From NCBI GenBank assembly GCA_964459165.1, contig CAYWKM010000001.1, positions 1 through 50,778 of the forward strand: DNA of 50,778 nucleotides. The letters run 5' to 3'. A model generated the notes under the pieces. The model was not told where the DNA came from and made no database searches. It saw only the letters and a program-made list of their open reading frames with translations. Of the stretch, positions 12,427 to 46,820 are shown one piece after another. Each line of letters starts with the position of its first letter. The first letter of the stretch is position 1. The DNA is from an uncultured Clostridia bacterium (GTDB lineage Bacteria > Bacillota > Clostridia > Christensenellales > Borkfalkiaceae). A program made the translations under genes and the position numbers.

Positions 12427-12438
12427 TCTTCCTAACCT

Positions 12439-13608: not shown

Positions 13609-13626
13609 AACTACCTCGCTAAAAAA

Positions 13627-14688
13627 TCAACCTAAAATATTTTTCAGCTTTTGTAGAAGAATATCGTTCTGTTCTTTCGTTCCTACGGTAATACGGCAAA
13701 AATCCTTCAGCTTCGGACTATCCCAAAACCGAACGAGAACGCCGTTTTCCTTCAATTTCTCGTAAATATACTTCCCGCCCTTTTCTTTGTTTCCGGCGAA
13801 AAGAAAATTGGCTCGACTCTCGGGTACGAGAAAGCCCATAGCCGTCAATTCTTTTCTTACTCTCGCCCTTTCGCCGATAATCAACCTCGCGTTTTCCGCG
13901 TAATATTCCGCGTCGGAAACGGCGGCGGCGCAAATCGTTTGGCATACGGTATCGATCGGATAAGAATTGAAACAATCCTTAGCGCGGAAAAGTCCGTCAA
14001 TCAGATATTTGTTTCCTATCGCATACCCGCAACGGATTCCGGCGAGGGAATAATATTTGGAGAACGTTTTTACGACGAGAAGATTCTCATATTTTTTTGT
14101 GAGCGTCGCGCAAGATTCTCCGAAGAATCCCATGTAGGCTTCGTCCGCAACGACGATCCTTTCGCGAACGGAAGAAATAAACGCTTCCATCTCCCCTTTC
14201 AATAGGCCGACGCCCGTAGGCGCGTTGGGATTCGCTATGAAATATCCCTGACAATCCGTTTTCGAGAAGGCGTCGAGATTCATCGTATAATCCTCGTTCA
14301 AAGGAACGATTTTTTGCGGAATCTTAAAGAATTCCGAAAATACGGGATAAAAGGAATAGGTGACGTCGGCAAAGCACGCTCCCTTCCCGTCGCCGTCGAA
14401 AAAGGCGGGAAAGCAAAGCGCGAGAACCTCGTCGCTCCCGTTCCCGCAAAAGACGTTTTCGATCTCCACGCCCTCCGCCTTCGCGATCGCGGCGCGCAAA
14501 ACGTCCGCATTGGGCGAGGGATACAGCTTCAATCTTTCCGGATCGATAGAGGAAAGCGCCTCCTTCACCTTCGGCGAAGGAGGATAAGGATTTTCGTTGG
14601 TATTCAGCTTTACGTATCTCTTGTCGTTCAGCTGCTCGCCCGCCGTATAAGGCCGAATGCCGCTTGTAAGCTTACTCAAAAAATTCAT
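13627..14688 (-). CDS. hisC: Histidinol-phosphate aminotransferase family (class II PLP aminotransferase)
   Basis: LNTNENPYPPSP, YPSPNADVLR, GNGSDEVL and the PLP-Lys segment FSKYYSLAGIRCGYAIG. Confidence 0.8.
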   Translation of the reverse strand: MNFLSKLTSGIRPYTAGEQLNDKRYVKLNTNENPYPPSPKVKEALSSIDPERLKLYPSPNADVLRAAIAKAEGVEIENVFCGNGSDEVLALCFPAFFDGDGKGACFADVTYSFYPVFSEFFKIPQKIVPLNEDYTMNLDAFSKTDCQGYFIANPNAPTGVGLLKGEMEAFISSVRERIVVADEAYMGFFGESCATLTKKYENLLVVKTFSKYYSLAGIRCGYAIGNKYLIDGLFRAKDCFNSYPIDTVCQTICAAAVSDAEYYAENARLIIGERARVRKELTAMGFLVPESRANFLFAGNKEKGGKYIYEKLKENGVLVRFWDSPKLKDFCRITVGTKEQNDILLQKLKNILG

Positions 14689-19151: not shown

Positions 19152-20126
19152 TTAAAAATTTTCTTCCTTGATATCCGATTCGTCTACGAACTTCGACCGC
19201 ATCCCCTTATCTTTATTGTCGGCGATCTTATAGTAATTGACAAAATACTTCTTGCCCTCTATCGTGTAATAGTTGACGAATTGCAGACAAAGCAAGAATA
19301 AAAAAGAGGCGGGGACCGTGAGAAGAAGCGCGCTGAACACCGTACAAACGGCAAACACGATGTTGACCACCACGATTAAATAAAGGGCGATCAGATAATT
19401 GGAGAACATTCTCGCCCGGTAAGGAACTCTCGTTCGGAAGCAGCTTCCGAACGCTTTTACGACGGGCATATGACCTTCGATGATAGAAGGCATCCAATTG
19501 GAAATTATCGTCAATTTCAACGCCTCGCAGACAAAGACGCCCGTAACCGAAAAGAACAACGTCACAAGGAGCGGCGTCGCCGATAAAAGGGCGAAGAAAA
19601 TGAGATAACACAGAAAGAGAAGCAATCCGTCGTACACAAAAGACATGAGAACGTACAAAACAGCGTAGACGCTTGCCTCGCCGAGCGTTTTGACAAGACT
19701 GGCGAAGAAAGAGATATCCGCGTAGGAATTCATTTTATCGTCTAACATACTGCCGAAAGCGAAATTCCCCACCGTATCGAGAAAGCGAAACAAAATATAA
19801 GTAAACACGACGCCGATGACCGCGCCCACGATATGCGAAATTTTGGAAGAAACCAACACGACGAGCGCATGAAACGCGTCGGCGATGCTCGTCTGAAATC
19901 CCGCGAGATATTCCGTATTGCCGGAAACGAGCGCACGGAAAAATTCCCGAATCGTTTCGATACAGTTCTGTAATTCCGCGCTCCCGAAAATATAAGAGAG
20001 ACTCGGAATGACGAACGCGAGGGCGATACTTACCGTAACGATCATGACGACAAGCTTATATAAGAGCATTTTATAGATAATGCCGAAATTATCGATCAAT
20101 AAATGTAAACTGTTGCGAAAGCGCAT
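19152..20126 (-). CDS. Polytopic membrane protein of unknown function
   Basis: 324 aa with 6 or more hydrophobic helices and a charged C-terminal tail (KDKGMRSKFVDESDIKEENF). It starts 3 nt after the stop of the upstream membrane gene. Confidence 0.6.
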   Translation of the reverse strand: MRFRNSLHLLIDNFGIIYKMLLYKLVVMIVTVSIALAFVIPSLSYIFGSAELQNCIETIREFFRALVSGNTEYLAGFQTSIADAFHALVVLVSSKISHIVGAVIGVVFTYILFRFLDTVGNFAFGSMLDDKMNSYADISFFASLVKTLGEASVYAVLYVLMSFVYDGLLLFLCYLIFFALLSATPLLVTLFFSVTGVFVCEALKLTIISNWMPSIIEGHMPVVKAFGSCFRTRVPYRARMFSNYLIALYLIVVVNIVFAVCTVFSALLLTVPASFLFLLCLQFVNYYTIEGKKYFVNYYKIADNKDKGMRSKFVDESDIKEENF

Positions 20127-20128
20127 CT

Positions 20129-21001
20129 TTATCTATTTCCCCCTTTTTCAATCGGTTTATATTGATAAGGAGGATGCAAATCGGCTCTCTCCATCTGATC
20201 CTGTTCAAAGTACGCCACTTCCTGTCCGACGGTAAACATCGTAAACAAAATCGTATATACGAAAAAGACGACGACGTAAGCGAGCGCGCCGTTTTTAATC
20301 GCGAGGCTGCACAGCGTCGTAAAGCCTGCGACGACAAGCACGGTTCCCCCCGTAAAGACGGCATACGTGCCAATGAGCTCCTTTTTGATACCGGAGAGAA
20401 GCTGATACGCATATTTGAGCGATTCGTAAAAGCGGAATCCCGTTATCTGCAAACAAGGAAGCCATAAATAGAACATATGTACCGCATACAGGAGCGCAAA
20501 AACCATCACGGCGAATACGATGACGACGAAGATGTATTGAGCCGGCGCAATTCCGGAAAAAATTTGAATAAATCCGAAGAGAATCGCGCTCGTCAGAACC
20601 GCCCATATTTCGTACAGCGCGGTATACATGACGAGGATTCCGAGCGTCGAAGTAAAATTATCGTTGATTTTTCTCCATATGCCGTTTAACGTTCTCTTTC
20701 CTATTCTCATATGCTTTTCAATAAAGGCAAACTGCATCGAAAGAAGAATCGCAAGCAGGATGAGAATCGCGAAGGAGACGAGGGTATACGCCCAATGCGA
20801 AAAATTCATGACGGAGACGGAGCCGAAAATTTCCGCAAAAGTCGCATCTCCGATTTCTCCGGTAAAAAATTTTCTCAGAAATTCGCCGAAATCGGCATAA
20901 TCGAACATCACGGTCAGAAGAGCCCCGCCCACGAAAGCAAACGGCAATATCTGAATGCAATTTTTTCGCACATAATAAAACGTTTTCTTCAAAATCAGCA
21001 T
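20129..21001 (-). CDS. Polytopic membrane protein of unknown function
   Basis: 290 aa with 6 or more hydrophobic helices. It has no recognisable catalytic motif. Confidence 0.6.
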   Translation of the reverse strand: MLILKKTFYYVRKNCIQILPFAFVGGALLTVMFDYADFGEFLRKFFTGEIGDATFAEIFGSVSVMNFSHWAYTLVSFAILILLAILLSMQFAFIEKHMRIGKRTLNGIWRKINDNFTSTLGILVMYTALYEIWAVLTSAILFGFIQIFSGIAPAQYIFVVIVFAVMVFALLYAVHMFYLWLPCLQITGFRFYESLKYAYQLLSGIKKELIGTYAVFTGGTVLVVAGFTTLCSLAIKNGALAYVVVFFVYTILFTMFTVGQEVAYFEQDQMERADLHPPYQYKPIEKGGNR

Positions 21002-21092
21002 GACAATACCCCTGACGTTTTTCTCTTACTATTATATTACAAAATATCGATTCTGTAAAGGGTTTCGGAGAAAAAAATTTTTCATCCCGACG

Positions 21093-21124
21093 AGAAAGCC
21101 GATCGTTTTTTTTAAACGATCGGC
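21093..21124 (-). terminator. Terminator-like hairpin at the distal end of the phage-like operon
   Basis: 10-bp stem GCCGATCGTT (21098-21107) / AACGATCGGC (21115-21124). The minus-strand transcript continues with UUUCUCG. It lies about 50 nt after the stop at 21172. Confidence 0.55.
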
Positions 21125-21171
21125 CCGCGCGCCCGAAGGAATCTCTTGCCTTCCGCTTCAAATAAATGCTT

Positions 21172-21693
21172 TTACAGGAAAGATTCCAGATAATATTTCA
21201 TGGTGGAATAATATTCCCCGAGATAATCTTCCGCAACCGAATCCCCTAAAAACGCCGCATATCTCTGAGCGGGATCTTCGATCTGCATATAGTATTCCTT
21301 TACGAGACGAAATCTGTCCGCGTACGACAGGGACTCGTCCGGATCCGACGGATTGTAGACGATCTCGCTCGTTTCCACGGAAGAATCCTCCTCCGTATCG
21401 CCGCCCGACGAATCGGAGGGATCCGTCGCGTTTACGACGGCGTCGAGCGTAACCGTTCTGAGGTCGCTCACCGCCCGATCGTATTCCTCCCCGAGCGCCA
21501 GATAAAGGAGCGAGAGCATATTCGATCGCGCCGTACCGTTCGCTATCAATTGAAGCTTGGCGTTCTCTCTGTCCGTATCCAATTGCTTTTGCAAAGCGTT
21601 CTTCTTTTCCTGCGCCGCGTACAGAATCTTCCGTTGCTCGTAATTCAACGTCGCGTACTGCTCCTCGGTGAAAGCAATGATATCAATATTCAT
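21172..21693 (-). CDS. Phage-module protein, helical and acidic (positional analogue of P22 gp26 plug)
   Basis: 173 aa, overlapping the upstream gene by 11 nt. It has a heptad-like N-terminal helix (YEQRKILYAAQEKKNALQKQLDTDRENAKLQL) and an acidic Ser/Asp linker. The function is inferred only from position. Confidence 0.5.
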   Translation of the reverse strand: MNIDIIAFTEEQYATLNYEQRKILYAAQEKKNALQKQLDTDRENAKLQLIANGTARSNMLSLLYLALGEEYDRAVSDLRTVTLDAVVNATDPSDSSGGDTEEDSSVETSEIVYNPSDPDESLSYADRFRLVKEYYMQIEDPAQRYAAFLGDSVAEDYLGEYYSTMKYYLESFL

Positions 21694-23035
21694 CGACCGT
21701 CGCCTCCAATCCGTATAAAGTCGCGTTGCTCCCGCATATCTTCACATTGAAAGTTCTTCCGCACAGCCGAGGGTGCAAGAGAACGCTCCCCTCCGCGTTC
21801 GCCCCGAACGAACGAGATTCATCCGAAACGACGACGCTGTATTTTCCCTCCGCGCGGATAAAGAGATCCTTCAAGATCTTCCGCTTTCCGCCCAAAAAGA
21901 AATCCGTCGGGCCGCTCTCCCACAGGCAATCGTACGCGTCGCCCTCTTCTCTTTCCCTTACGTAATATAAATCGGCCCCCTCGAAAAAATACAGCTTATC
22001 CGAAAAGGAGAAAAAGCTATCCCCGTGAAAGGGAAGCAGATATCCCTCTTTCTCGCTCGCGTCGATGCAGAGCGACGCCTTCGTTTCGTCCTTCAAGACG
22101 ACTCCCGCATAATATTTCTCCCCGTGCGCGCAGGGAATCCCGAAGTCTCCCTTTTTCAATAGGGCGAAAAGCTCGCCGCACATCCTTTCGGCTTTCGTTC
22201 CGTCAAAGCGGTAAATCCCCTCGTCCGTCAGAAATACGACGTATCCCCCGCATACGGCGACGCTCTCCTTTACGATGTTTCCGCAGGAGACGTCGAGGGC
22301 GGAGACGTAAAAGTTTCTATTATCCCCCATGGCGCGCAATCGGGTGATTCCCCTCTCGCGAATCAGATACAGCCTGCCGTCGTAACCGATCAGCCGAAGG
22401 ATCTTTCCCTTGTCCTCGGGGATCTCGATATATCCCGCCCCCTGTACGTTCTCGGTAAAATCATTGACGTCGAGCGCTCTCGAAAAGGTTATTTTACAGT
22501 CGGACTCCTCGTTTGATAGAAACAACCGCTCGTAATGCACCGCCGCGCACGAGGAAGAGGGAACGGAGGCGAGCTGCGCGAACGCGTTTTCGCTCCCGCT
22601 GAAAAGATACGCTCCCTCCTTCCCCGCGAAGAGGAAACGCTCCTCTCGATCCGTCGTCATATAAAACATTCCCTCGGGCGGAGAGGAAAACGCGATCCCC
22701 GAGGCAGTCGCGCTTCCGTCCGTTTCCAAGCGGTAAAGCTTCCCGTCCGCCCCGTACGCGAAGAGAATTTCCTCGTGCGAATCGCCGCTGCGATAGCGGT
22801 AAACGTACGCCCGCTTCATTTCAACGGGGAAGGAGACTTCCGCGCCGTCCGCCGTCGCCCGCTCCGCCGCAGGTCCGCTCGTCAGCGAGCCGCCTTCGCC
22901 TTGAAAGCCGACGCAGGTTCGGGCGAACAATTTTTCTCCCGCGTCCTCTCCGCGATAGGAATATATCCCGTCGAAATATTTCTTTTTCGTCGAGAAGGAA
23001 GACTGCCCTTCGATCGTTTTTTCCAAAAATATCAT
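21683..23035 (-). CDS. Phage-module structural protein with repeated beta-strand blades (positional and size analogue of P22 gp10)
   Basis: Start set at ATG 23035 (MIFLEKTIEG...), which forms an ATGA overlap with the upstream stop. The longer ORF from 23263 would overlap the upstream gene by 230 nt. Recurrent motifs are GKLYRLETDGS, GAYLFSGS, GRLYLIRERG and EGIYRFDGT. 450 aa. Confidence 0.6.
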   Translation of the reverse strand: MIFLEKTIEGQSSFSTKKKYFDGIYSYRGEDAGEKLFARTCVGFQGEGGSLTSGPAAERATADGAEVSFPVEMKRAYVYRYRSGDSHEEILFAYGADGKLYRLETDGSATASGIAFSSPPEGMFYMTTDREERFLFAGKEGAYLFSGSENAFAQLASVPSSSCAAVHYERLFLSNEESDCKITFSRALDVNDFTENVQGAGYIEIPEDKGKILRLIGYDGRLYLIRERGITRLRAMGDNRNFYVSALDVSCGNIVKESVAVCGGYVVFLTDEGIYRFDGTKAERMCGELFALLKKGDFGIPCAHGEKYYAGVVLKDETKASLCIDASEKEGYLLPFHGDSFFSFSDKLYFFEGADLYYVREREEGDAYDCLWESGPTDFFLGGKRKILKDLFIRAEGKYSVVVSDESRSFGANAEGSVLLHPRLCGRTFNVKICGSNATLYGLEATVDEY

Positions 23036-23589
23036 ACCCAACTCCTGCAAGAAATCCTTCCCGCTCTCTCCCTCGCGACCAAGGCGGCGTGCAATTCCTC
23101 GTAAAAAGTTCTGTTCCAGACCGCGCTCTCGTTCAACAGATCCCGCGTGAGAAAATAATGTTTCAGGATTCCCGCGACCAAAGCGATCTCCGAAACCCCT
23201 CGATCGACCTCGCAGAAATCGTCCGCCGCCTTTTCCCTCGGACGGGAGGCGTATTCGATGCAAACCCGCCCCTTTTCCGTTTGAAGGTAAGAGGCAAAGC
23301 TGCGGTAGCCGAGCCTCTTCCCCTTGTCGTCCGTCAGCTTCTTCACGTAGGCGAAGGGGTACGCGAAGGAATCATAGCGGATCTTCCCCGTCTGCGTCTC
23401 GCAGATTTTTCGGTGCAGGAGGGGAAAATATTCCCCCGCGATTTCCGTTTCGACCTCGTTGTAATAGACGAGCAGCTCCTCCGCCTCCCCGTTGAGAGAC
23501 GCGTCCTCCTTGATCCCGCTCAAATGCTCAAACAGATCTCTCCTCCCCAAGTGCACCGCCGCCTTAGCTAAAATTTCTTTTACTATCAT
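23032..23589 (-). CDS. Phage-module protein (positional analogue of a head-tail adaptor, P22 gp4-like)
   Basis: 185 aa from ATG 23589, which has an AGGAG Shine-Dalgarno 6 nt upstream. The TTG at 23595 is less likely. It is the first gene after the capsid gene. Confidence 0.5.
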   Translation of the reverse strand: MIVKEILAKAAVHLGRRDLFEHLSGIKEDASLNGEAEELLVYYNEVETEIAGEYFPLLHRKICETQTGKIRYDSFAYPFAYVKKLTDDKGKRLGYRSFASYLQTEKGRVCIEYASRPREKAADDFCEVDRGVSEIALVAGILKHYFLTRDLLNESAVWNRTFYEELHAALVARERAGRISCRSWV

Positions 23590-23669
23590 GAACAACTCCT
23601 ATGTTAAAAACAGGGCGGTCGCGCCTTCAACCGTTTCAAGGCAAGCGGCGCGCCCTATCGCTTGTCGGT

Positions 23670-24836
23670 TTACGCTTCGGTAATGCCGGTGAGCATCGCC
23701 TGACCGCAGGGTCTGACGCAAAGGAGATTCGCATACTTGGCGAGCGTCGCTTCAAACAGGGGCTTTCCTGCGACCTGCTTCAAGATTTTTCCGTCCTCCC
23801 CTCTGAGCCAATCCCATTCGCCGAGCTGATGCAGGCAGAAATCGTCTGTGTTTAACAGATACATCGTCCCCTTGGGACAGAACCTGTCGGTCACGACGGG
23901 AATGCCGTTGAAGCTCATGGCGAGATATCCGCCCGCGAGCTCCATTACGTCGATATTTCTCTTGTATTGGGAAAGCACGTCGGCGAGCGCCCTCTTTACG
24001 CCCCACGAACACATGATGAAATTAACCTTGGAGCCGGAAACCTCGTCGAGATAATCGATGACCTTCTGAATGGTATTCTCGCTGATCGACCCGACGGAAG
24101 AGAGCTTATACGGCTGCATACAGCTGCTGACGCTTCTTTCCACGCCGTAGAGCTTTTCGCTGTCCGAAAAGAGGGCGGCGAGTCCCGTAATTTCCAAACC
24201 GTAGGAATTTTGCACCGTAACGAAGCTGTCCGCGGGAAGGTCCGTAGCGGTAACGGTATCGCCGCTCACTTGGATATATTTTCCCGTTCTGTCGACGTAG
24301 GTAATCGTCCTGCCGGTATCGATCACCGTACCCGTTTCCGAATAAAAATCGAGTTTCATCCCCTCGAAGCAGGCCAAAACGGTATCGAGGTAAATTTTAC
24401 CGGCGGCCACCCCGGCTACCGTGCCGACCTTGCCGGAACCGTCGCCGAACGTCATTCTGGCGAGATTGAACGACGCGCTTTTGACCAAAGACTCCATTTC
24501 CTCGTTCAAGAGATTGACGAACGCCCCCTCGTCGTTCCGCGAAGCCTTGATCGCCTTATCGGAAATACAAATGGTTCCGAATAAATTTTTCAATTCGCCG
24601 GTGAAGCAAAGGTACTTGCTTCCGCCGTACGCGGGAAGATTTCCGTCCTCCGTTCCCGCCCCGACGCCTCCGTTGACGCCGTATCTGACGACCTTTTTCA
24701 CGTCCTTTCCGTACACGTCGGCGGTCGACTGTTTGATCGCGGCGAGAAAAGGATTCGCCTTCATATTCAGCTGATCCGTCACCGCGTCGAGATAAAAGGA
24801 TTTCAATGCGTTGTCCGCTGTTTCCAAAGTAATCAT
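23670..24836 (-). CDS. Phage major capsid protein (HK97-fold type)
   Basis: 388 aa from ATG 24836, with an AAGGAG Shine-Dalgarno. It follows the scaffold gene. Capsid-like C-terminal segment SFNGIPVVTDRFCPKGTMYLLNTDDFCLHQLGEWDWL. It is the only gene in the module flanked by intergenic gaps, with a hairpin downstream. Confidence 0.7.
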   Translation of the reverse strand: MITLETADNALKSFYLDAVTDQLNMKANPFLAAIKQSTADVYGKDVKKVVRYGVNGGVGAGTEDGNLPAYGGSKYLCFTGELKNLFGTICISDKAIKASRNDEGAFVNLLNEEMESLVKSASFNLARMTFGDGSGKVGTVAGVAAGKIYLDTVLACFEGMKLDFYSETGTVIDTGRTITYVDRTGKYIQVSGDTVTATDLPADSFVTVQNSYGLEITGLAALFSDSEKLYGVERSVSSCMQPYKLSSVGSISENTIQKVIDYLDEVSGSKVNFIMCSWGVKRALADVLSQYKRNIDVMELAGGYLAMSFNGIPVVTDRFCPKGTMYLLNTDDFCLHQLGEWDWLRGEDGKILKQVAGKPLFEATLAKYANLLCVRPCGQAMLTGITEA

Positions 24837-24959
24837 ATCGTTATTTTCTCCTTGCATTCTGATTTTTTTGTTCGGGGAACAGGCAAAGCCCTTCTTTTGA
24901 AGCGGTTCAAAAACGCAGCTCTTTTCCGCCCCGCAGAAAGAATCGGGCTGTTTGCCCCT

Positions 24960-25538
24960 TTATTCCCCCTTGAAATATCGCAAAGCCAGATTTCCGGCTT
25001 CGCCGACCGTTTTCGGTCTTCGTTTTTCGGCGGGCACGCTCACGCCGCCGCCCCTCATTAAGGGGATTTTCTTCCCCGCGACGGAATCGAGATACTCTCT
25101 TATGACGCTCTCCTTCAACTCGTCGCTCAAAGAAACTTTGTCCGAAGCTTCCTCTTTTTTTCGCTCCGCTCCTCTCGGTTCTTCTCTTTCGGGGGAAGCC
25201 TCCTCCCTCGCGGTTTCGTCGGCGTTTGTCGCCTCCGCCGAAACGTCCTTCTCCGTTCCGCCGTCCCTTCCGGAGGAGGACTTCGTCGCCGTTTCGGACT
25301 CTTCTCCCTTATCCGTAAAAGAAATCCCCTTGCTTTCGCAGAGCTCCTTCAACCTTTTGAGCTGTTGACTCCTCTTCGTAAATTCCGCCTCCAGCTCGAC
25401 ATATGAACGATAAAGGGCATCGGGGCTTTTGAATTTTCCGAACGCCGCCGTGCCCGTTTCCTTCCTTTCGCCCTCCGGCGAACGCACCGCGTTCTCCTCC
25501 TTACAATCGTTCTCCCGAATGTTATCCTGTCCTTCCAT
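24960..25538 (-). CDS. Phage scaffolding protein
   Basis: 192 aa, very acidic and low-complexity, with a helical segment FKSPDALYRSYVELEAEFTKRSQQLKRLKEL typical of scaffolds. It lies between the portal and capsid genes. Confidence 0.6.
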   Translation of the reverse strand: MEGQDNIRENDCKEENAVRSPEGERKETGTAAFGKFKSPDALYRSYVELEAEFTKRSQQLKRLKELCESKGISFTDKGEESETATKSSSGRDGGTEKDVSAEATNADETAREEASPEREEPRGAERKKEEASDKVSLSDELKESVIREYLDSVAGKKIPLMRGGGVSVPAEKRRPKTVGEAGNLALRYFKGE

Positions 25539-25541
25539 TTT

Positions 25542-27368
25542 TTATTGCTCCTTTTTTTCTTTATGTTCGCGAAGGTGCTTTAAAAATCTCTCCTTCGCCT
25601 CTCCGCTCTCGTATTTCTTAAATTCGTCCGAGAGCAAGAACCTCGTGTGTTCTCTGATATGAATTTCATGATCGTCGTATTCGTCCGCTTCCACATCCTT
25701 TTTAAGGAGGGAAACGTTTTCGTCATGCGCCTTGTCCTCATGCAAAGCAGATAAATCTTTGCTCCATTCAAAGGAGGAAAATCCCAACGCGTTCAATACT
25801 CTGTTCTTATTTCCGTCCGGAATTTTTCCGTCCTCGCCGGTTAAGAGTCCCAGCTCGATCAACTGCATCATTTCCGTCCTCACGTTCGCGGGCGAAGTCT
25901 TATCGTCCGTCTCCAAGACGACGTCGTCGGCGCAGATATCGCTGGCGGAAAAATAAAACAACTTCGCCTTTTTTCCGTTCCCCGTCATGCGCACGATCCT
26001 GCGCGAACCGGCAAACTGCCTGTAAAGCCTCAAAATATGACTGCCGATGCTCTTTAACGCGTTGTCGATATTCCCTTCCGTCGAAGACAGGCGCTCGTTG
26101 TACTGTTCCAACAGAATTTTCAATCCCGTCGCGCTCGTCACGTTGGTGGGATTCGTCGAATTTCTCGATATTTCGCTCGTCTCTCCGATCAGAAGAAACT
26201 CCTCTTCCAGCCGTTTTTCCTCCTCGGCGAGCTCCGGGGGAACGCTCCCCGCGCTCATTACCTGAGGAGGAACGCTCCCCTGTCGGTATACGAGAATCTT
26301 TCCGGGAGGAAGTCCCTCTTGTTCGAGCTCGTCCATATCCACCGAACCGTCCTCCACCGTCACGACTCCCATGGAAAGCCTGTTCAGAAATTCATGCTTT
26401 CTGTTCCGCACGGCGTTATACGCCCTCTGCAAGGGAATGAGCCTCTCCACGATGCTCGCCCCGTAAAACGCGCCCGGCATATCGACGCATTTCTGCATGA
26501 CGAAGGGAAAATCCCTTCCGCCGAACTTGGCGTTTCGATAAGGAAGGACGCCGGTATAGAGCAGCTTCCCGCCTGCGGCGATCTCCACTTTCCCTTCGGG
26601 AAACTCCTTCGTCGGTCTCGTATACCGTTCGACGACGACCTCGTAATCGTGCAGCGTCGTACTGTTTCCGCCCGACGCCGTCTGCTCGAGCTCGGACGAA
26701 GCGGAATAGGGCGCGAGCGAAAACTCCGCGATGTCCCTGCCCGCCACCCATACGCCGTACATCTCGTGAATTTTTCCGCACGGCATGGCCTTCGCGTGAA
26801 TGAGCGAATGAACGCTTTCGAGACTTTCCGCCGCCAAATTATCGGGATAGACCTCGTAGGGGGAAAGCGGAATAATCTCCACGTTTCCTTCGTAAATCTT
26901 CCCTTCCTCCGACGATCCGATCTCCATTCCGAGATCGCCGTTCCATATAACCTTGTAAAACGCCGTGCCGCACACCTCCGACCACATCGTTGCGCGGGTG
27001 ACGGCTTCGTCCAGCTTGCAGTCTTCCTTAACCGTGTCGATGATCCCTTTGGCGAGAGAGGCGGCGTATAAATCCCCCTCCTCGTCGGAAGCGGGACGCG
27101 CATAAATTTGCGGCCTCATCTTGATGAGCTTCGCGATTCTCGTATCGACGACGGGAGCGATGTGATTGAAAACTCTTCGACTCTGCCAGTAAAACTGCTT
27201 GTCCTCCGTATAAATATCTCCGTCCGGACCGATATCGCAGTATTGCATGCCGTTTATAAAATTCATATTCAATTGCCAACCGCGTTCAATCGAAAGTCTC
27301 TGCAGCTTTCTGTTCTCGTAATCCTCTAAAATATCTTGCGCAAGTCCTTTCTCTTCCTTCTCATCCAT
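25542..27368 (-). CDS. Phage portal protein
   Basis: 608 aa, positioned directly after the terminase genes, with a helical basic/acidic C-terminus. The size and position fit a podovirus-type portal. Confidence 0.7.
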   Translation of the reverse strand: MDEKEEKGLAQDILEDYENRKLQRLSIERGWQLNMNFINGMQYCDIGPDGDIYTEDKQFYWQSRRVFNHIAPVVDTRIAKLIKMRPQIYARPASDEEGDLYAASLAKGIIDTVKEDCKLDEAVTRATMWSEVCGTAFYKVIWNGDLGMEIGSSEEGKIYEGNVEIIPLSPYEVYPDNLAAESLESVHSLIHAKAMPCGKIHEMYGVWVAGRDIAEFSLAPYSASSELEQTASGGNSTTLHDYEVVVERYTRPTKEFPEGKVEIAAGGKLLYTGVLPYRNAKFGGRDFPFVMQKCVDMPGAFYGASIVERLIPLQRAYNAVRNRKHEFLNRLSMGVVTVEDGSVDMDELEQEGLPPGKILVYRQGSVPPQVMSAGSVPPELAEEEKRLEEEFLLIGETSEISRNSTNPTNVTSATGLKILLEQYNERLSSTEGNIDNALKSIGSHILRLYRQFAGSRRIVRMTGNGKKAKLFYFSASDICADDVVLETDDKTSPANVRTEMMQLIELGLLTGEDGKIPDGNKNRVLNALGFSSFEWSKDLSALHEDKAHDENVSLLKKDVEADEYDDHEIHIREHTRFLLSDEFKKYESGEAKERFLKHLREHKEKKEQ

Positions 27369-27624
27369 TGTTTTCCGCCTCCTTCAAAAGATTCTCCAAC
27401 ATCTCTCTTTCTCTTTCCAATTCCTCCTCGCTCTTGCCCGATAGATCCTCGTTCTCCAAAAGGAACATGATCGCTTTCATATCGGGGGGAATCTCTTTCT
27501 TCGTCCTTCGCTTTTTTACGACGTGAAATTCTCCGTCCTCCACGGCAAAATCCTCCGTCACCTCCGAAACGCTGTATCCCGAAGCGAGTTTTTTAATAGC
27601 CTTGGTTATCTTTGGATCTGTCAT
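27361..27624 (-). CDS. Small terminase-like mini-protein (TerS-like), located downstream of TerL
   Basis: 87 aa. LASGYSVSEV and KKEIPPDMKAIMFLLEN resemble the aGYS... and PPDxxAxiFwLkN segments I recall from small terminase subunits. It overlaps the TerL 3' end by 32 nt and the portal start by 8 nt. Confidence 0.4.
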   Translation of the reverse strand: MTDPKITKAIKKLASGYSVSEVTEDFAVEDGEFHVVKKRRTKKEIPPDMKAIMFLLENEDLSGKSEEELEREREMLENLLKEAENNG

Positions 27625-29038
27625 TTTTCAGTTTCCTCATCCTCCTTTCCTTGTCCCTCTGCACCTCCGTCTTTTCCACGATCTGTTTGGGAGGCTGAGG
27701 TCTCGACATGATATAGTATCTCAGCTCGTCCATGGAATGGTCGTCCCTCTTCACGGGCGTATCGTTGCTCCCCCAGAAATATCCCTTCATCTCGCGGATC
27801 ATGTTCACGCAACAGCTGAAAATATATAAATTGGGGAAAGAATTGTTTCTGTTTAAATAGCTCTTTACCCTCGAAATCCCCGAGAAAACGTCCTTGTCGA
27901 CGTGGGTATTGACGAGAATCCCCCTTTCATAAAAGAGCTCCGATACGCTCTTGGCGTACGCCAACGTCTTTTGATTCGCCGCGCTGTCGATGAGCGCTTC
28001 TATCCTCCCCTTCGCGTCCGTATGCCATCCGATTTTCTTGCAGATCTCTTTGATCTTCGCCGAGTGATAATCGACGTCCTTTCCCGATTCGTAATGCTCG
28101 TAAACCACGTATACGTTTCCGTCGTAATCTACGGCGTACCAATGCGCGGAAAGGGGGTTGTTCAGTCCGGGATCGATCGAAATGTTGTCCTGCCATTCAA
28201 ACGGTACGGAAAAAGGCTCTATCACGTGTACGCTCTCGTCAAAGGAGGGATAGACCAATCCCGCGTTAGAGGCGAATCGCCCGTATCTCCTGCTTTGCAG
28301 CTCGCTTTCGTCCATACTGCTTTCAAGCAGCTGAATTTCCTTTTTGTCGAGATAGGGATTATCCGACCATTCCATAAATTCATACCAGACCTCGGGATTG
28401 TTCTTTCGGTTCATGTAGATTTCGTCGTACACGTACGTAAGTCCCTTCAAAGGAGTCATCGTCGCAAACAGATCCCCCTTGCGATCGATCACCCTCATGC
28501 GACATTCCTCATAAACGTCCTTAGGAGGCTCCTCGTCGAACCAAACGTAGTCGAGCGAGCTTCCCTGAAATTTTTCTCTCCCCTGATCGCAGCTTTTAAA
28601 ACCGATCACCGAAATTCCCCCGAACACGTTTTTCACGCGGATAAAATCGATGATCCCGTTTTCCGGACTTCCCTTTCTCCCGCTTATCATCACGATCTCG
28701 TCTATCCAATCCTTCCTGAGATAATAAAGAATCTTTTTTTGCGCGACGTCTCTCTGTACCTGTTGCGATAAGGACACTACCCATCCCTCCGTATTTCTTC
28801 TGTTTTTTCGGTAAGGATGAATTCCCCTCGCAAAATAAACGCATTCGACCGCGCCGCACTCCGTCTTGCCCGAACGATTTCCCCCGAAGACGAAACGAAT
28901 CCTCTTTTTGCTTTTATGGAAGGCGATCTGCTTCCTGTGCCTCTTCTTTCCGGTATTGTATTGAGCGAGCTTGTCCGATTTTTTTCTCCTCTCTATCTCC
29001 TTTTCAATCTCGGCCAATCTTTCTTTGATATTATTCAT
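27593..29038 (-). CDS. terL: Phage terminase large subunit
   Basis: Walker A FGGNRSGKTE, Walker B LDYVWFDEEP and the C-terminal nuclease motif RDDHSMDELRYYI. 481 aa. Confidence 0.85.
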   Translation of the reverse strand: MNNIKERLAEIEKEIERRKKSDKLAQYNTGKKRHRKQIAFHKSKKRIRFVFGGNRSGKTECGAVECVYFARGIHPYRKNRRNTEGWVVSLSQQVQRDVAQKKILYYLRKDWIDEIVMISGRKGSPENGIIDFIRVKNVFGGISVIGFKSCDQGREKFQGSSLDYVWFDEEPPKDVYEECRMRVIDRKGDLFATMTPLKGLTYVYDEIYMNRKNNPEVWYEFMEWSDNPYLDKKEIQLLESSMDESELQSRRYGRFASNAGLVYPSFDESVHVIEPFSVPFEWQDNISIDPGLNNPLSAHWYAVDYDGNVYVVYEHYESGKDVDYHSAKIKEICKKIGWHTDAKGRIEALIDSAANQKTLAYAKSVSELFYERGILVNTHVDKDVFSGISRVKSYLNRNNSFPNLYIFSCCVNMIREMKGYFWGSNDTPVKRDDHSMDELRYYIMSRPQPPKQIVEKTEVQRDKERRMRKLKNDRSKDNQGY

Positions 29039-29055
29039 ATTTCGTCAATAATACT

Positions 29056-29085
29056 TTCACAACCTCCTTTTTTGAAATCTATAAT
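29056..29085 (+). promoter_or_regulatory. Promoter of gene 29092-29835 with leaderless-type spacing
   Basis: TTCACA (29056-29061), 18 nt, TATAAT (29080-29085), then 6 nt, then ATG 29092. No Shine-Dalgarno is present. Confidence 0.5.
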
Positions 29086-29091
29086 AAAGCC

Positions 29092-29835
29092 ATGAAAATA
29101 AAACGTTTCCTTCTTCCGTTGACAGCTCTGCTCGTCATGATTTTTCTGTTCCCTTCAAAAGCTAAAAATGCGAACGCGGAAACCGGCGTCTATGCGTGCA
29201 TCGTCAACGGCGACACCTATTTATACGAGACGCAGAGCGAAGAAAACGGCATATTTATTCTGCCGCAATCCTATTATGTGAAGGTTCTGAGCAAAGGAAG
29301 CTCCTTCTGTTACGTGCAATATCTTGAAAACGTCGCCGAATTTAAAAGCGTCTTCGGCTACTGCAAGACGGACGAGCTCCTCTTTGTCGATTATACGCCC
29401 CTGCGCCCCTATCTTTACCTCACGTTCGACGTCAAATATTACATCGACGGCTCTTCGGATCTGTTTTCGACGGAAAACATTCTCTCCTCCTTCTCCTATC
29501 AGTGCGTTTATTACGGCGATTATATCGTCGGATCCGCCCGATATTCCTATGTATTGGTCAACGGAGCCTACGGCTACATTCCTCAGGCGCAACCCGTTTC
29601 CTATGAAATGAATACGGATTATCTCTCCTACATCGTGTCGTTAGACCCGCCCGAAGAGGACGAGGACCTCTCGGAAGACGCGAAAAATACGGAAGATTTG
29701 ACCGACGGGCAAGAAGAAAGCGACAATCGGGGAATTATCGTCGTCTGCGTCGCCGGACTCGTCGTCATAGCCGCGACTGCTCTGGTCGTCATTTTGAAAT
29801 CCGGCAGGAAGAAACAATATTATTACGACGACTGA
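29092..29835 (+). CDS. Secreted, C-terminally membrane-anchored protein with two SH3b-like halves
   Basis: Signal peptide MKIKRFLLPLTALLVMIFLFPSKAKNANA. SH3-like segments YACIVNGDTYLYETQSE...YYVKVL and YSYVLVNGAYGYIP. An acidic linker, a TM helix IIVVCVAGLVVIAATALVVIL and the tail KSGRKKQYYYDD follow. Confidence 0.65.
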   Translation: MKIKRFLLPLTALLVMIFLFPSKAKNANAETGVYACIVNGDTYLYETQSEENGIFILPQSYYVKVLSKGSSFCYVQYLENVAEFKSVFGYCKTDELLFVDYTPLRPYLYLTFDVKYYIDGSSDLFSTENILSSFSYQCVYYGDYIVGSARYSYVLVNGAYGYIPQAQPVSYEMNTDYLSYIVSLDPPEEDEDLSEDAKNTEDLTDGQEESDNRGIIVVCVAGLVVIAATALVVILKSGRKKQYYYDD

Positions 29836-30352
29836 CGAACGCATCCTCCTTCGGGATAAACCGAAAGCTGCAGCCCTTTCCTCGAAGAAAGCATTCGTCC
29901 TTTCCCTCCGTCACGTTGCAATAGACGCGCATGACGATATCGCTCGAAGAAAACTCCGTCAGAAAGACCTTCTCGTCGTAACCCGCCGCATGAAGCCGCA
30001 CGGAAATTTTTTTGGTGACGCTCCGTATTTTCCGAAAAAAGCTGCTGTATGAAAAGGGAAATTCGTAATTTTCATATTTTCCGTAAAGCAGCCGCTTCCT
30101 TCGGAAATATTTATATTCGATCAGACATTTTTCGTCCTCCGAAAGCCCCGCGAGAATCCCTTCCATCGTCTGTCGAAGCTTTTCAAGCGCGCCGACGAGA
30201 AACGTATCGTCGATGATTTCGTCAATATATTGCAGCGTTCGGGAATCGGCGGACGAGCTTTTGATCATCGCGTCCGCAAGACGGTAATACATCTTCTTCA
30301 AATATCCGATTTTCGGATACAGGTATAAAACCGTCTTCTCGTATTCAAACAT
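29789..30352 (-). CDS. Small sigma-70 region-4-like transcription factor (ArpU/Xpf-type late activator candidate)
   Basis: Start at ATG 30352, with an AGGAGG Shine-Dalgarno 7 nt upstream. LSEDEKCLIEYKYFRRK...FSYSSFFRKIRSVTKKISVRL resembles region 4.1/4.2. The 3' end overlaps the convergent gene 29092-29835 by 47 nt. Confidence 0.45.
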   Translation of the reverse strand: MFEYEKTVLYLYPKIGYLKKMYYRLADAMIKSSSADSRTLQYIDEIIDDTFLVGALEKLRQTMEGILAGLSEDEKCLIEYKYFRRKRLLYGKYENYEFPFSYSSFFRKIRSVTKKISVRLHAAGYDEKVFLTEFSSSDIVMRVYCNVTEGKDECFLRGKGCSFRFIPKEDAFVSRRNNIVSSCRISK

Positions 30353-30382
30353 CTCCACACCTCCTTTATTCGAGATAAAATC

Positions 30383-30396
30383 CGAACATTTGTTCG
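30383..30396. promoter_or_regulatory. LexA (DinR) SOS box / Cheo box
   Basis: CGAACATTTGTTCG is a perfect CGAAC-N4-GTTCG palindrome. It lies 14 nt downstream of a minus-strand TATAAT (30415-30410) and 31 nt upstream of ATG 30352. Confidence 0.6.
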
Positions 30397-30594
30397 TGCT
30401 TACAAATATATTATAGCTTGATATTTGGAAATTTGCACGGGTATTTGTCAAAAATTTTGATTTGTTTTTTATTTTTTTTGATTTTAAGGGAAAATCGGAG
30501 AAGTCTTACGAGCTTTCGCGAAAAATCGTTCACGGATTCAACGCCGCGCTCCTTAGAGCGTTTGAAACATCCGCTGAAAGCGAAATAAAAAATC

Positions 30595-30623
30595 TTGTAA
30601 TTTATTCAGGAGTATGTTATAAT
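30595..30623 (+). promoter_or_regulatory. Strong sigma-A promoter of the large surface protein gene
   Basis: TTGTAA (30595-30600), 17 nt, TGT-TATAAT (TATAAT = 30618-30623). The -10 overlaps the first ATG (30622). ATG 30631 lies 7 nt downstream. Confidence 0.6.
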
Positions 30624-30630
30624 GTTTTAT

Positions 30631-33159
30631 ATGAAAAGAATAAAATCGATTACGCCAATCTTTTTATCGATCCTCGCCGTAGCCGCAGGGTTTTTCGCCT
30701 TGCGCTTTTCCGACGAAGGACAGACGGGATCCGCCGCGTCTTATACGGAAGTGACCGCCTCCTCTTCCTTTTTGTCGATTCCCGACGGGTACGAGCAATA
30801 CCTCGATCTTCAAAATCCGACCTCCGTCGCTCACAGCGAGGCTTACTTTGCTATATCGGACGCCAATATCGTCTATCTCTACGATCAGGAAAAAGGCGTA
30901 TATACCGCCTACGAACACACGTATAATACCGATTCGCGCATGAACGAGATCTCGCAGATCAGCTTCGCCTCCGACGGAAATCTTTATTTCACCGATTCGT
31001 CCTCCTATCTTTTCCGTCTCGATTGCTCTACGCTCCTATCGACGCGCACCGCTATTTCCTGCAACGTCTTTGCCGTCGACGGAGACGTCGTCTACTATTC
31101 CACGATTGCAAGAGGAAAAACCTATATTTCCTCCGTTCCGATTTCCTCGCCCGACCCCGAACAGGCGAAAAGCTGCGCCTCCTATCCGGGATCGACGTTA
31201 CCGGCGATCGTCGTCGACGACGGAACGCTTCTCTATGTGAATATGTTCTATCTTACGAACGTTCTTCTCGACGAAACGATCGCTCTTTCCATCGACGAAA
31301 CCGTCGTTTCCGCGGCGTCCGACGACGGCGTTCTCTATCTCTGCGGAGCCGAAGGCTCCTTCGTCGTATACGATTACTATAACTCGAAGGTTCTTCGGCA
31401 ATACGAAGGCGAATATTATTACGCGGAAAATTACGAAGACTACGTCTACGTCGTCGACAGCCGTTCCGTCTCCCGTTTCGATAAGCGGACCAATGAATTT
31501 ACCTCCTATCGGATATGCTCTTCCTCTTCGGCGGAGAACAGACTTTCCAACGCAGTCGACGCCGTTGTATGCGGCAATGCGCTCTATATCGCCGACGCCG
31601 ACAATAGCCGCGTTCTCCTATACGACACAGAAAAAAATTCTTATCAAACAATCGCAACGGCCGCCACTCCTTTGGAGCTCTCGGCGGATGACTCCACCGT
31701 CCTCGTCAACAGCGGAAACGAGTGCGCCGTCTACAACTTAAAGGGAGAGCTTCTGTTCAGCTATTCCGATCTCTCGGGCGGAGAGCTCTTTCTCTCCTCC
31801 GTCAACGTGTACGGAACGTACTACGTCGTCACCTCCAACAATTATTTTTGCAAAATTTACCGGGACGAAAACGGGGAATATAAGGCGGAAAAAGCGTCGA
31901 AAACCCTACGATCCGTCGCGCAGGAAGTTTCTTCCGATCTTTACGGGAATATTTACGTTTATTTTTCAGACAATACCGTTTACCGCTTCACCGAGAATAA
32001 CTTTACGCGAACAAACGAAGCCGGCGCCTATTGTTATCTGTTTCCTTCGAACGTCTCTCACTTTTGCGCGGATTACGCAGGCAACGTATACGGCATGAGC
32101 GGAAACAATCTTTTTTCCAGCTCCGGAGATTATACCGCGTTGAATTGTTCGGACAGCGTATACGCCTCCGAAAGCGCGCCGATTAAGACCGTCGTCGGCT
32201 TTTCCTCCAACCGCGTTTATATTCTCTATCGCAATTACGTTCTCTATACCGATATTCTTTCTATTCCCGCTCTCAACAATATTCCCTCGCAGAATGTTTC
32301 TTCCGGAATTTTCGGCAGCGCCGATACGACGCTCCAAGTATTGAACGTAAAAGCCGGATCCATTCTCATCGCCTTCGATTTGGATTCCTTAAAGGGCTCG
32401 ACCGTATTTCCCTATCTGAATTACGATCGGACGACGGAGGACAAGCAGTGCGTCAAGCTCGGAGAAACGGACAATTATTACGTCGTGTCCGTATTCGATA
32501 ACGACACGAAAAAATATACGGCGAGCATCGTTTTGAAATCCTCTTGCGAATCCGTCGATTCCTCCTATCTTTTCACCGAGGCGACGGGATTTGAAAACGG
32601 ACAAGGCTATGCCTCGAACGACGTCGCATTATTCCGTTACCCCTTCTTATCCGAATCGCTCTCAATCGTTACGATAGAGAAGGGAAGCGCCGTCAATGTC
32701 TTTGGAACGGTTACCCTTAACGAGGGGGCTGATTATCGCTATTATTACGTCGGCGTGGAGACGAAAGACGCAAGCTATATGGGCTACGTTCCCGTTTCGT
32801 ATATTTTGCCCATACAGATCTCCTCCGCCGATAAAACCATTCTTTCTTACGGCTATATTTCGACAACCGATCCGACCTTCCTTATGACGGCGGAAGACGG
32901 AAGCACGATAGAAGTATCGACTTCCGAAAAATTCAGCATATACGACGACCCCTATTCCTCCCCGACGGTGACGATCGGATATACCGACGAAAACGGAAAA
33001 GTGTACTATACGACCGTTTCGTCCTCCCTTTTAACGGCGACCGATACCGGGCAGCTGAGGACCTTTATCATCATCGTCATTATCGTCGTCGCGCTGATTA
33101 TTTTAACGGATTACTTCATTCTCCGCAAACGCCGAAACGAAGACGACGATTACGATTAA
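30631..33159 (+). CDS. Large secreted, C-terminally anchored protein with beta-propeller-like repeats and SH3-like C-terminal domains
   Basis: The ORF opens at 30622, but the promoter geometry favours ATG 30631 (MKRIKSITPIFLSILAVAAGFFAL, a signal peptide). Many blade-like repeats are present (LYFTDSSSYLFRLD, ALYIADADNSRVLLYD, NIYVYFSDNTVYRF and others). The SH3-like region reads VALFRYPF...AVNVFG...YMGYVPVSYIL. A TM helix and the tail RKRRNEDDDYD follow. Confidence 0.7.
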   Translation: MKRIKSITPIFLSILAVAAGFFALRFSDEGQTGSAASYTEVTASSSFLSIPDGYEQYLDLQNPTSVAHSEAYFAISDANIVYLYDQEKGVYTAYEHTYNTDSRMNEISQISFASDGNLYFTDSSSYLFRLDCSTLLSTRTAISCNVFAVDGDVVYYSTIARGKTYISSVPISSPDPEQAKSCASYPGSTLPAIVVDDGTLLYVNMFYLTNVLLDETIALSIDETVVSAASDDGVLYLCGAEGSFVVYDYYNSKVLRQYEGEYYYAENYEDYVYVVDSRSVSRFDKRTNEFTSYRICSSSSAENRLSNAVDAVVCGNALYIADADNSRVLLYDTEKNSYQTIATAATPLELSADDSTVLVNSGNECAVYNLKGELLFSYSDLSGGELFLSSVNVYGTYYVVTSNNYFCKIYRDENGEYKAEKASKTLRSVAQEVSSDLYGNIYVYFSDNTVYRFTENNFTRTNEAGAYCYLFPSNVSHFCADYAGNVYGMSGNNLFSSSGDYTALNCSDSVYASESAPIKTVVGFSSNRVYILYRNYVLYTDILSIPALNNIPSQNVSSGIFGSADTTLQVLNVKAGSILIAFDLDSLKGSTVFPYLNYDRTTEDKQCVKLGETDNYYVVSVFDNDTKKYTASIVLKSSCESVDSSYLFTEATGFENGQGYASNDVALFRYPFLSESLSIVTIEKGSAVNVFGTVTLNEGADYRYYYVGVETKDASYMGYVPVSYILPIQISSADKTILSYGYISTTDPTFLMTAEDGSTIEVSTSEKFSIYDDPYSSPTVTIGYTDENGKVYYTTVSSSLLTATDTGQLRTFIIIVIIVVALIILTDYFILRKRRNEDDDYD

Positions 33160-33167
33160 AAGCAGCA

Positions 33168-33205
33168 AAGCGCAGGCTTTCACGCCTGCGCTTCCGTTTT
33201 GCTCT
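33168..33205 (+). terminator. Rho-independent terminator
   Basis: 10-bp stem AAGCGCAGGC (33168-33177) / GCCTGCGCTT (33184-33193), then CCGTTTTGCTCTTTT. Confidence 0.75.
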
Positions 33206-46763: not shown

Positions 46764-46820
46764 TTTATTTCTTCGTCCTCCGTTTTGTTTTCGTAAATTG
46801 CTTCCTTCTTTTTATACCCG

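Follow-up and report, generated by a model that had tools for sequence, protein, structure and literature searches.

Does a compact run of phage head and packaging genes, set among the housekeeping genes of a bacterial chromosome, represent what is left of a decaying prophage, or has it been retained by its host? This question is raised by a gene cluster (referred to here as the module) in a 50,778 nt stretch of DNA (the window) from an uncultured Clostridia bacterium of the family Borkfalkiaceae, order Christensenellales (contig CAYWKM010000001.1 of assembly GCA_964459165.1). The original prediction, which was made from the letters of the window alone, had preferred a retained, host-controlled capsid and DNA-packaging module over a truncated prophage, and this preference is supported here by the conservation of the module, purifying selection on its genes, a LexA box and a tail nozzle gene. 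Family scans identified a chromosomal cluster of phage-derived structural and packaging genes that is not accompanied by modules for replication, integration or lysogeny. We interpret the module as the domesticated remnant of a P22/SU10-type podovirus, which has been passed on vertically and now serves as an SOS-induced gene transfer agent (GTA), a reading to which we assign a probability of about 0.62.

Eight minus-strand open reading frames (ORFs), all in one direction between positions 21172 and 29038, were reproduced by the ORF table of the window, as were their tight junctions, i.e. overlaps of 32, 8 and 11 nt, a single 3-nt gap and a 4-nt ATGA overlap at 23032-23035. The extent first proposed for the module (21172-30396) does contain these eight ORFs, but the functional unit was found to be longer on both sides (~19152-33159), with the addition of a LexA-boxed regulator (g220), two surface-anchored proteins (g845 and g247) and two polytopic membrane proteins (g290 and g324). 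In related loci, which were retrieved through the capsid protein, the block was shown to be ordered as g845 (opposite strand), g220, g247 (opposite strand) and then the head genes; in the lineage of the window, g290 and g324 end the block directly before pgm.

Conservation, inheritance and selection

A relative of the major capsid protein, through which the comparison loci were collected, was detected in at least 586 GTDB species-representative genomes (one genome per species). The best 80 of these at least 586 genomes were all metagenome-assembled genomes (MAGs) of Clostridia/Christensenellales, the more specific names among them being mainly Christensenella, Christensenellaceae, Borkfalkia, Scatosoma and Gallimonas. 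Capsid homologues number more than 4000, are nearly constant in length and in many cases lie on long chromosomal contigs; the relatives form 689 clusters (50% identity) at E≤1e-30. The module was present in all related loci examined (83/83), and the presence counts given below for single genes refer to 49 loci with enough sequence on the upstream side and to 65 loci on the downstream side.

Gene order was constant across the loci examined, while the housekeeping surroundings differ. For example, pgm is found on one side of the module in a dozen loci, rpoA-rplQ (L17) on its other side in locus L003, and ispG-rimP-nusA-ylxR beside it in Christensenellaceae-type loci; in the very prevalent L154 type, GH43 adjoins g845 and spoVA lies downstream. 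The SpoVAC/SpoVAEB gene of this prevalent relative directly follows the module. As far as can be read from gene neighbourhoods, these varied surroundings mark the module as an old resident whose neighbourhood has been rearranged, and not as a site-specific insertion. An empty site or att-like junctions in related genomes, put forward earlier as possible signs of ordinary recent decay, were not observed in the loci examined, and the module was intact in dozens of species. Frameshifted orthologues, envisaged as a further such sign, were likewise not encountered for the three genes compared: where not cut by a contig end, the genes were full length and uninterrupted for TerL in 64/64, for the portal in 79/79 and for the capsid protein in 83/83 loci.

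Selection was assessed by comparison of the window with a close relative (L084), the capsid protein of which is 97% identical. The ratio of nonsynonymous to synonymous divergence (dN/dS) ranged from 0.04 to 0.21 across the module genes, apart from the scaffold gene, which is the fastest evolving (0.39). Values of 0.04, 0.065, 0.067, 0.07, 0.07 and 0.10 were obtained for g87, capsid, g185, TerL, portal and g173, respectively, and TerL, portal and nozzle were among the most constrained genes (0.07-0.15), with purifying selection being evident for every gene of the module. Synonymous divergence (dS) of the module was 0.15-0.52, bracketing the value of 0.32 for the adjacent pgm gene, and synonymous sites were shown to be saturated between distant loci that are still syntenic (L001 and L086). 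Furthermore, the distances of capsid, TerL, portal, nozzle and g185 sequences track those of pgm (r=0.76-0.90, Mantel p≤0.0005) among the 12 taxa having both. Judged by these sequence comparisons, the module is fixed and vertically inherited in the host clade, under purifying selection.

Packaging and head genes

The first gene of the minus-strand operon (27593-29038) encodes the large terminase TerL, comprising ATPase and nuclease regions, as evidenced by matches to Terminase_6N (1.2e-13) and phrog_2 (3e-30); its identity among loci is 57-82%. The three motifs quoted in its initial identification were all located, with GGNRSGKT (Walker A) at residue 52, FDEEP (Walker B) at residue 167 and DDHSMDELRYY (nuclease) at residue 432. 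In the IMG/VR contigs L128 (6733-7260) and L115 (2559-6870), a TerL match of only ~176 aa is located between ORFs of 367-732 aa with no assigned family, as if the terminase gene of these two relatives had been split or interrupted.

TerL is followed by g87 (27361-27624, minus strand), a small acidic protein with a weak, partial match to the small terminase family phrog_309 (1.9e-5), covering positions 196-261 of 319 in the distal part of the profile. Members of the g87 family measure 84-130 aa in the loci examined and contain the invariant motif G..E..E...K..PPD..A, while no PDB match was obtained with the g87 profile. This protein is probably what remains of a small terminase (TerS), with no DNA-binding domain that could be recognised, a condition also described for GTAs.

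The portal protein (25542-27368, minus strand) is of the P22/SU10 type (PF16510 P22_portal, 1.8e-18; phrog_156, 1.8e-34). Between the portal and capsid genes, in the window as in the loci examined, lies the gene for a highly charged 192-aa protein (24960-25538, minus strand) with 42 acidic and 36 basic residues, no transmembrane (TM) segment and no family match, which was assigned as the scaffolding protein by position and composition. The 388-aa major capsid protein (23670-24836, minus strand) belongs to the podoviral type with HK97 fold (NF033394 capsid_maj_Podo, 9e-71; phrog_14242, 2e-60), with weak, sub-threshold matches to Pfam SU10_MCP; its ORF spans 23670-24857, with the true ATG at 24836. 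Alignment of 383 of its residues to the 311-position capsid_maj_Podo model implies an insertion of ~75 aa; in the representative library, a subgroup of related, shorter capsid proteins (280-310 aa) is without it.

A podovirus-type tail nozzle and its neighbours

The gene for the tail nozzle, g450 (21683-23035, minus strand), was present in 65/65 loci. Protein searches gave five to six homologues, and the AlphaFold2 model, built on a shallow but diverse seven-sequence alignment, reached a predicted local distance difference test score (pLDDT) of 76.6 and a predicted template modelling score (pTM) of 0.70. When this model was compared with the PDB using Foldseek, the top 26 matches were all chains of podovirus tail or portal-tail complexes, including Pa223 (1.6e-15), VP1, GP4, PhiM1, Pan3, SU10 gp17, P22 gp10 (9jg6_a, 5.8e-10), crAss001 and T7 gp12. 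The best matches in BFVD (predicted viral structures) are annotated 'P22 Gp10, DNA-stabilising', and a profile of 31 g450 orthologues was shown to align with the beta-propeller of SU10 gp17 (hhalign E 1e-4). By its predicted structure, g450 is a P22 gp10-type tail nozzle, of the class that also includes T7 gp12 and SU10 gp17. Because g450 is of this type, the particle would have a tail hub. The term 'tail-less', as used in the original prediction, is accurate with regard to fibres or spikes, ejection proteins and lysis genes, all of which are missing from the cluster, but not with regard to the nozzle, which is itself a tail component.

The protein encoded between capsid and nozzle, g185 (23032-23589, minus strand), is a candidate head-to-tail adaptor by position, which is conserved in 62/65 loci. 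It gave no significant PDB, Pfam or PHROG match, its comparison with the SU10 gp11 adaptor yielded an hhalign probability of 1%, and its single-sequence AlphaFold model (pLDDT 44) was unusable. Its earlier description as gp4-like is consequently a putative assignment by its location between the capsid and nozzle genes.

The last gene of the operon, g173 (21172-21693, minus strand), encodes a conserved acidic protein and is the shorter version of the ~300-aa f9 family (hhalign probability 96%, E 2.6e-9), which is A/E/K-rich and, like g173, helical; g173 or f9 was found in 57/65 loci. No likeness to the SU10 needle was detected by hhalign, nor to PDB chains by profile search, and the initial comparison of g173 with gp26 is unsupported. 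The idea that the three distal proteins close the portal is borne out for g450 through its gp10-type structure, but the gp26 analogy for g173 is not. The g173 protein is a candidate virion component, either a plug or a decoration protein. Pfam and PHROG scans of the orthologue sets of g185, g173/f9 and g220 returned nothing recurrent.

An optional family (f16/f28/f31; 300-395 aa), absent from the window, is encoded between the nozzle gene and f9 in 19/65 loci (L007, L013, L018, L021, L023, L033, L039 and others). Its members start with a coiled coil and continue with a beta-rich region; profile matches to sugar-binding sandwich and WD40 folds were weak, and no PDB sequence was matched significantly. 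The family is a candidate needle or receptor-binding protein.

A LexA operator upstream of a putative late-gene activator

A predicted LexA operator of the Cheo/DinR type, CGAACAAATGTTCG, is located at 30383-30396, 31 nt upstream of the g220 ATG, with a TATAAT hexamer (30410-30415) 13 nt further upstream. The sequence is a perfect Gram-positive LexA operator, and only three GAAC-N4-GTTC sites occur in the whole window. Such a site, nearly always CGAACAAATGTTCG, was found upstream of the g220 orthologue in 19/31 loci (expected frequency, 0.015 per 400 nt), while several of the 12/31 loci without the box are cut by a contig end.

The g220 gene (29789-30352, minus strand) encodes a putative late-gene activator of 187 aa with a weak sigma region-4/ArpU-like signature. 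Orthologue alignment placed its true start at the ATG at 30352 (MFEYEKT), which is preceded by AGGAGG, and revealed the conserved signature L..EE..L.YKYF...R.YFRKQ. Its best PDB profile matches were non-significant (RpoD region 4, E 0.15; SigA1, E 0.67), and comparison with the transcriptional regulator family phrog_36 gave E 0.004. Of the LexA-boxed, sigma-like regulator that had been proposed next to the operon, the box is therefore real and recurrent, but the sigma likeness is weak. An orthologue of g220 was present in 41/49 loci.

The g220 and g247 genes converge with an overlap of 47 nt (29789-29835), and the start codons of the divergent g247 and TerL genes are 53 nt apart (29038-29092). 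Because of this convergent overlap and close spacing, LexA-controlled transcription of g220 could run antisense to g247 into the head operon. An 'ATTATA'-type hexamer is located 40-60 nt upstream of TerL, beside the g247 start codon (window ~29075-29085), and recurs in L001, L013, L020, L023, L039, L040, L047, L050, L059, L060, L063 and L064; it may be a late promoter element.

Membrane and surface proteins

Divergently from g220, g845 (30622-33159, plus strand) encodes a membrane-anchored surface protein of 845 aa, as deduced from TM prediction and profile search. Its layout comprises an N-terminal signal/TM segment (residues 9-27), two beta-propellers, an SH3-like region, a C-terminal TM segment (816-834) and an acidic tail. 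A profile of 30 g845 orthologues matched propellers of the PQQ-like and NHL/PknD types in the PDB (1e-15 to 1e-11), and several orthologues match Pfam NHL, PQQ_2 or DUF5050. The second surface protein, g247 (29092-29835, plus strand), is predicted to have a signal peptide and a C-terminal TM anchor (TM segments 6-24 and 215-233), and is a partial paralogue of g845 through a common C-terminal region (hhalign probability 93.6%, E 2e-7). These proteins were present in 39/49 (g845) and 43/49 loci (g247), and g845, g220 and g247 occurred together in 38/49.

On the other side of the head operon, g290 (20129-21001, minus strand; 6-8 TM segments; dN/dS 0.21) and g324 (19152-20126, minus strand; 4-5 TM segments; dN/dS 0.16) were predicted to be polytopic membrane proteins, g324 being the last gene before pgm. 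The two are paralogous (hhalign probability 92%) and gave no family or PDB match. At least one of them was found in only 17/65 loci, g290 being a lineage-specific accessory gene; g324 adjoins the module also in loci lacking pgm (L034, L039, L050, L059 and L064). Within the 170-nt interval that follows g173, a promoter-like site (TTTACA-17-TATAAT, 21059-21031) points to transcription of g290 and g324 apart from the head operon. None of the proteins g845, g247, g290 and g324 matches a phage family.

Genomic surroundings

The module has a G+C content of 0.498, between those of its flanks (0.484 and 0.507), so that the impression of a base composition like that of the neighbouring DNA, first gained by eye, was confirmed by computation. 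No tRNA gene was found in the window, and a direct-repeat search revealed no att-like flanking repeats at the module borders. The right edge of the module carries a bidirectional terminator-like hairpin (33167-33194; 10-11 bp, 7 G-C pairs, T-runs on both strands), identified as a consensus match only.

Outside the module, a Pfam scan of ORFs of at least 120 aa across the window returned only housekeeping genes, among them spo0A, a LytTR two-component system, ABC transporters, pgm, a GH43-related gene, a patatin gene, pheA, aroG, alr, sigA and dnaG, with Spo0A and the dnaG-sigA operon being located at 398-1156 and 45714-48623, respectively. In the housekeeping flank, a 231-aa fusion of an HTH_3 DNA-binding domain and a cytidylyltransferase-like domain is encoded at 39972-40667.

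Missing functions and phage relatives

In the same scan of ORFs of at least 120 aa, no phage replication, integration, lysis or fibre genes were found in the window, in agreement with what had been noted initially; tape-measure genes were likewise not found, and no tailspike or ejection-protein gene was present among the scanned ORFs of module and window.

IMG/VR labels 66 related contigs as viral, most of the matches being short fragments that hold only this module. Loci L088-L137, mostly such module-only fragments, are probably host GTA-like loci that have been catalogued as viruses. Phage relatives were also present in IMG/VR (L138, L143, L146 and L149), with a capsid protein that is 26-39% identical, a TerS of 165 aa, four to five extra ORFs between capsid and nozzle, and a 1317-aa ORF after the nozzle.

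Further loci (L100, at 11968-14358, L108, L097, L126 and L147) have kept g220, g247, the head genes and the nozzle, which is followed by additional ORFs of 480-900 aa. One of these, a 796-aa ORF in L100, shows ~28% identity to proteins of Bacillus and Butyrivibrio phages that are annotated as tail proteins. From these gene arrangements, the cluster of some lineages may still encode a fibre or tail protein. Taken together, the phage relatives and the closer relatives with a tail-protein-like gene fit a progressive streamlining from a podophage ancestor.

Comparison with known systems

The closest parallel was found in FpGTA of Faecalibacterium prausnitzii, a 10.5-kb operon of ten ORFs (Borodovich et al., Nat Commun 2026, PMC12946183), which encodes a TerS without DNA-binding domain, TerL, portal, capsid protein and tail nozzle (PMC12946183). 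Its particles measure ~40 nm, show no visible tails by electron microscopy and contain ~8.5-9 kb of host DNA, while fibre, receptor-binding, holin and endolysin proteins are encoded at a second locus (PMC12946183). Both FpGTA and the module represent chromosomal operons of gut Clostridia, ~10 kb long and made up of ten ORFs, with TerL, a TerS-like protein devoid of a DNA-binding domain, portal, capsid protein, podovirus nozzle and hypothetical proteins, and neither carries integrase or replication genes. By annotation, they also have the order TerL-portal-X-capsid-...-nozzle in common (RCH50852-50844 in FpGTA). The last protein of FpGTA I, annotated 'TolA' and very abundant in particles, is reminiscent of the A/E/K-rich helical g173/f9, which is a resemblance only.

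Conversely, the FpGTA capsid protein (RCH50849.1) is named 'N4-gp56 family' by NCBI, whereas that of the module matched only NF033394 and no N4-gp56 model at E≤0.01 (NCBIfam). Between portal and capsid genes, FpGTA encodes a Prp-like protein and the module a charged scaffold; the second FpGTA locus, with its fibre, receptor-binding, holin and endolysin genes, has no visible equivalent in the window. The LexA-boxed regulator and the membrane proteins g845 and g247 are features of the module that are not described for FpGTA. Cluster look-ups of distant capsid-protein representatives gave no Faecalibacterium names. The two systems are alike in overall architecture and lifestyle but set apart by annotation, and are not demonstrably of the same family.

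GTA-like packaging of fragments of 4-7 kb has also been reported for Christensenellaceae MAGs from long-read sequencing of virus-like particles of the gut, with peaks at ~4.1 and 7.1 kb for HGM11616 and at ~6.3 and 4.5 kb for QANA01, to which no locus was assigned (PMC12946183). The module is a strong candidate for the source of this packaging. Full-text searches of the literature retrieved no account of the Christensenellales module.

Similar to the module, RcGTA of Alphaproteobacteria is a phage-derived head and packaging cluster that is fixed in its clade, vertically inherited and under purifying selection (see also PMC12946183). RcGTA is regulated by the host, as is predicted for the module. 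Both have a small terminase (in the module, a probable remnant) without DNA-binding specificity, and neither main cluster contains genes for lysis and attachment. RcGTA is derived from a siphovirus, with a long tail, a tape measure and a prohead protease, and is controlled by CtrA/GafA and quorum sensing. It differs from the module in this siphovirus origin, in the lack of a promoter-proximal LexA box and in its host phylum, and the two are presumably independent domestications.

With podoviruses of the P22/SU10 type, the module has in common the P22-type portal, the gp10/gp17-like nozzle and the order TerL-portal-scaffold-capsid-adaptor-nozzle; unlike these phages, it has no tailspike or fibre, needle homologue, ejection, lysis, early or replication genes. 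The P22 late gene order proposed at the outset holds from the portal through scaffold, capsid and adaptor position to the nozzle, but the TerS-like gene follows TerL, while it precedes TerL in P22.

Capsid-forming phage-inducible chromosomal islands (cf-PICIs), like the module, supply their own capsid, portal and terminase and lack other virion functions. They are mobile elements with an integrase, replication genes and att sites, and use the long tails of a helper phage. By contrast, no integrase, replication gene or att site was found for the module, which supplies its own podovirus nozzle.

Proposed mechanism and alternative explanations

In the proposed GTA mechanism, DNA damage would remove LexA from the operator before g220, and g220 would then switch on the minus-strand operon (TerL to g173, or ten genes with g290 and g324 counted), whether by its own action or through read-through transcription. 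A procapsid would be assembled from portal, scaffold and capsid protein, and the scaffold would exit from it in a P22-like manner because no prohead protease is encoded. TerL, with the TerS remnant g87, would fill this procapsid with host chromosomal DNA by a headful mechanism and without sequence specificity, after which the candidate adaptor g185, the nozzle g450 and g173 would seal the portal. A packaging capacity below the size of the encoding locus is a hallmark of GTAs. Because the module is without lysis and receptor-binding functions, release of the particles and transfer of their DNA to recipients would have to rely on genes elsewhere or on g845, g247, g290 and g324.

Several points weigh against this interpretation. 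The evidence on the locus comes from sequence comparison and structure prediction. No lysis, fibre or spike gene was found in the cluster or window, leaving the route of exit and entry incomplete, and the regulatory role of g220 is based on weak similarity (E 0.15-0.004). Ordinary temperate phages can also be under LexA control. Finally, a single look-up, that of the most prevalent capsid-protein cluster, returned assemblies other than HGM11616 and QANA01.

One speculative extension of the GTA model, which we consider doubtful, is a kin-restricted exchange of DNA, in which a fibre-less particle would dock on g845 (with g247) of sister cells, and antisense read-through would silence this receptor in producing cells. 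If true, the locus would represent a GTA that encodes its own receptor, with a producer/recipient toggle in one locus.

Alternatively, the capsid module could have been domesticated and kept for another purpose, such as DNA release or altruistic lysis triggered by the SOS response, interference with infecting phages, whose DNA would be competed for or mis-packaged, or the delivery of other cargo. Conservation, selection and LexA control indicate usefulness but not a particular use; genes for fibres or receptor-binding proteins, by which particles could dock on a recipient, were not found, and the GTA model leaves four co-conserved membrane proteins unexplained. Nevertheless, the constraint on TerL, portal and nozzle fits a closed, DNA-filled and deliverable particle, and related gut Clostridia release host DNA in capsids (PMC12946183), so that this explanation is considered unlikely, albeit worthy of serious attention.

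A mobile phage satellite of the capsid-forming island type, borrowing fibres, lysis functions and perhaps replication from a helper phage, would account for a locus with its own capsid, portal and terminase but without fibre or lysis genes; the viral label of the 66 IMG/VR contigs and the tail-protein gene after the nozzle in some relatives would also be in line with such an element. However, most of these IMG/VR matches are short module-only fragments, no integrase, excisionase, replication gene or att repeat was found for the module by the Pfam scan and the repeat search, and its flanks erode gradually, with no indication of site-specific insertion. Moreover, the module co-diverges with pgm, its dS being equal to that of this neighbouring host gene. 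A cf-PICI-type satellite was rejected on these grounds, and a satellite of any such kind is very improbable.

That only a structural module remains, as prophage deletion can yield, would also be expected of an ordinary cryptic prophage on its way to decay, but this is hardly tenable, being contradicted by the same intact gene set in dozens of species-level loci with uninterrupted TerL, portal and capsid genes, by purifying selection on every gene, by a conserved regulatory site and by synteny that has been kept between lineages with saturated synonymous sites. An encapsulin-like compartment was rejected because of the strong constraint on the retained terminase, portal and nozzle genes.

Implications for the Christensenellales

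Members of the Christensenellales are heritable, health-associated constituents of the human and animal gut microbiota, and to our knowledge almost nothing is known about gene exchange in this order. The module represents a concrete candidate for packaging in Christensenellaceae, for which an inducer (the SOS response) and a regulator can be predicted and the structural genes are defined. If the GTA interpretation is true, the module would be the second, apparently independently derived, podovirus-type GTA in Firmicutes, and such elements would be fixed across an entire bacterial order. Many of the 'viral' contigs in catalogues of the IMG/VR type would then be host GTA loci.

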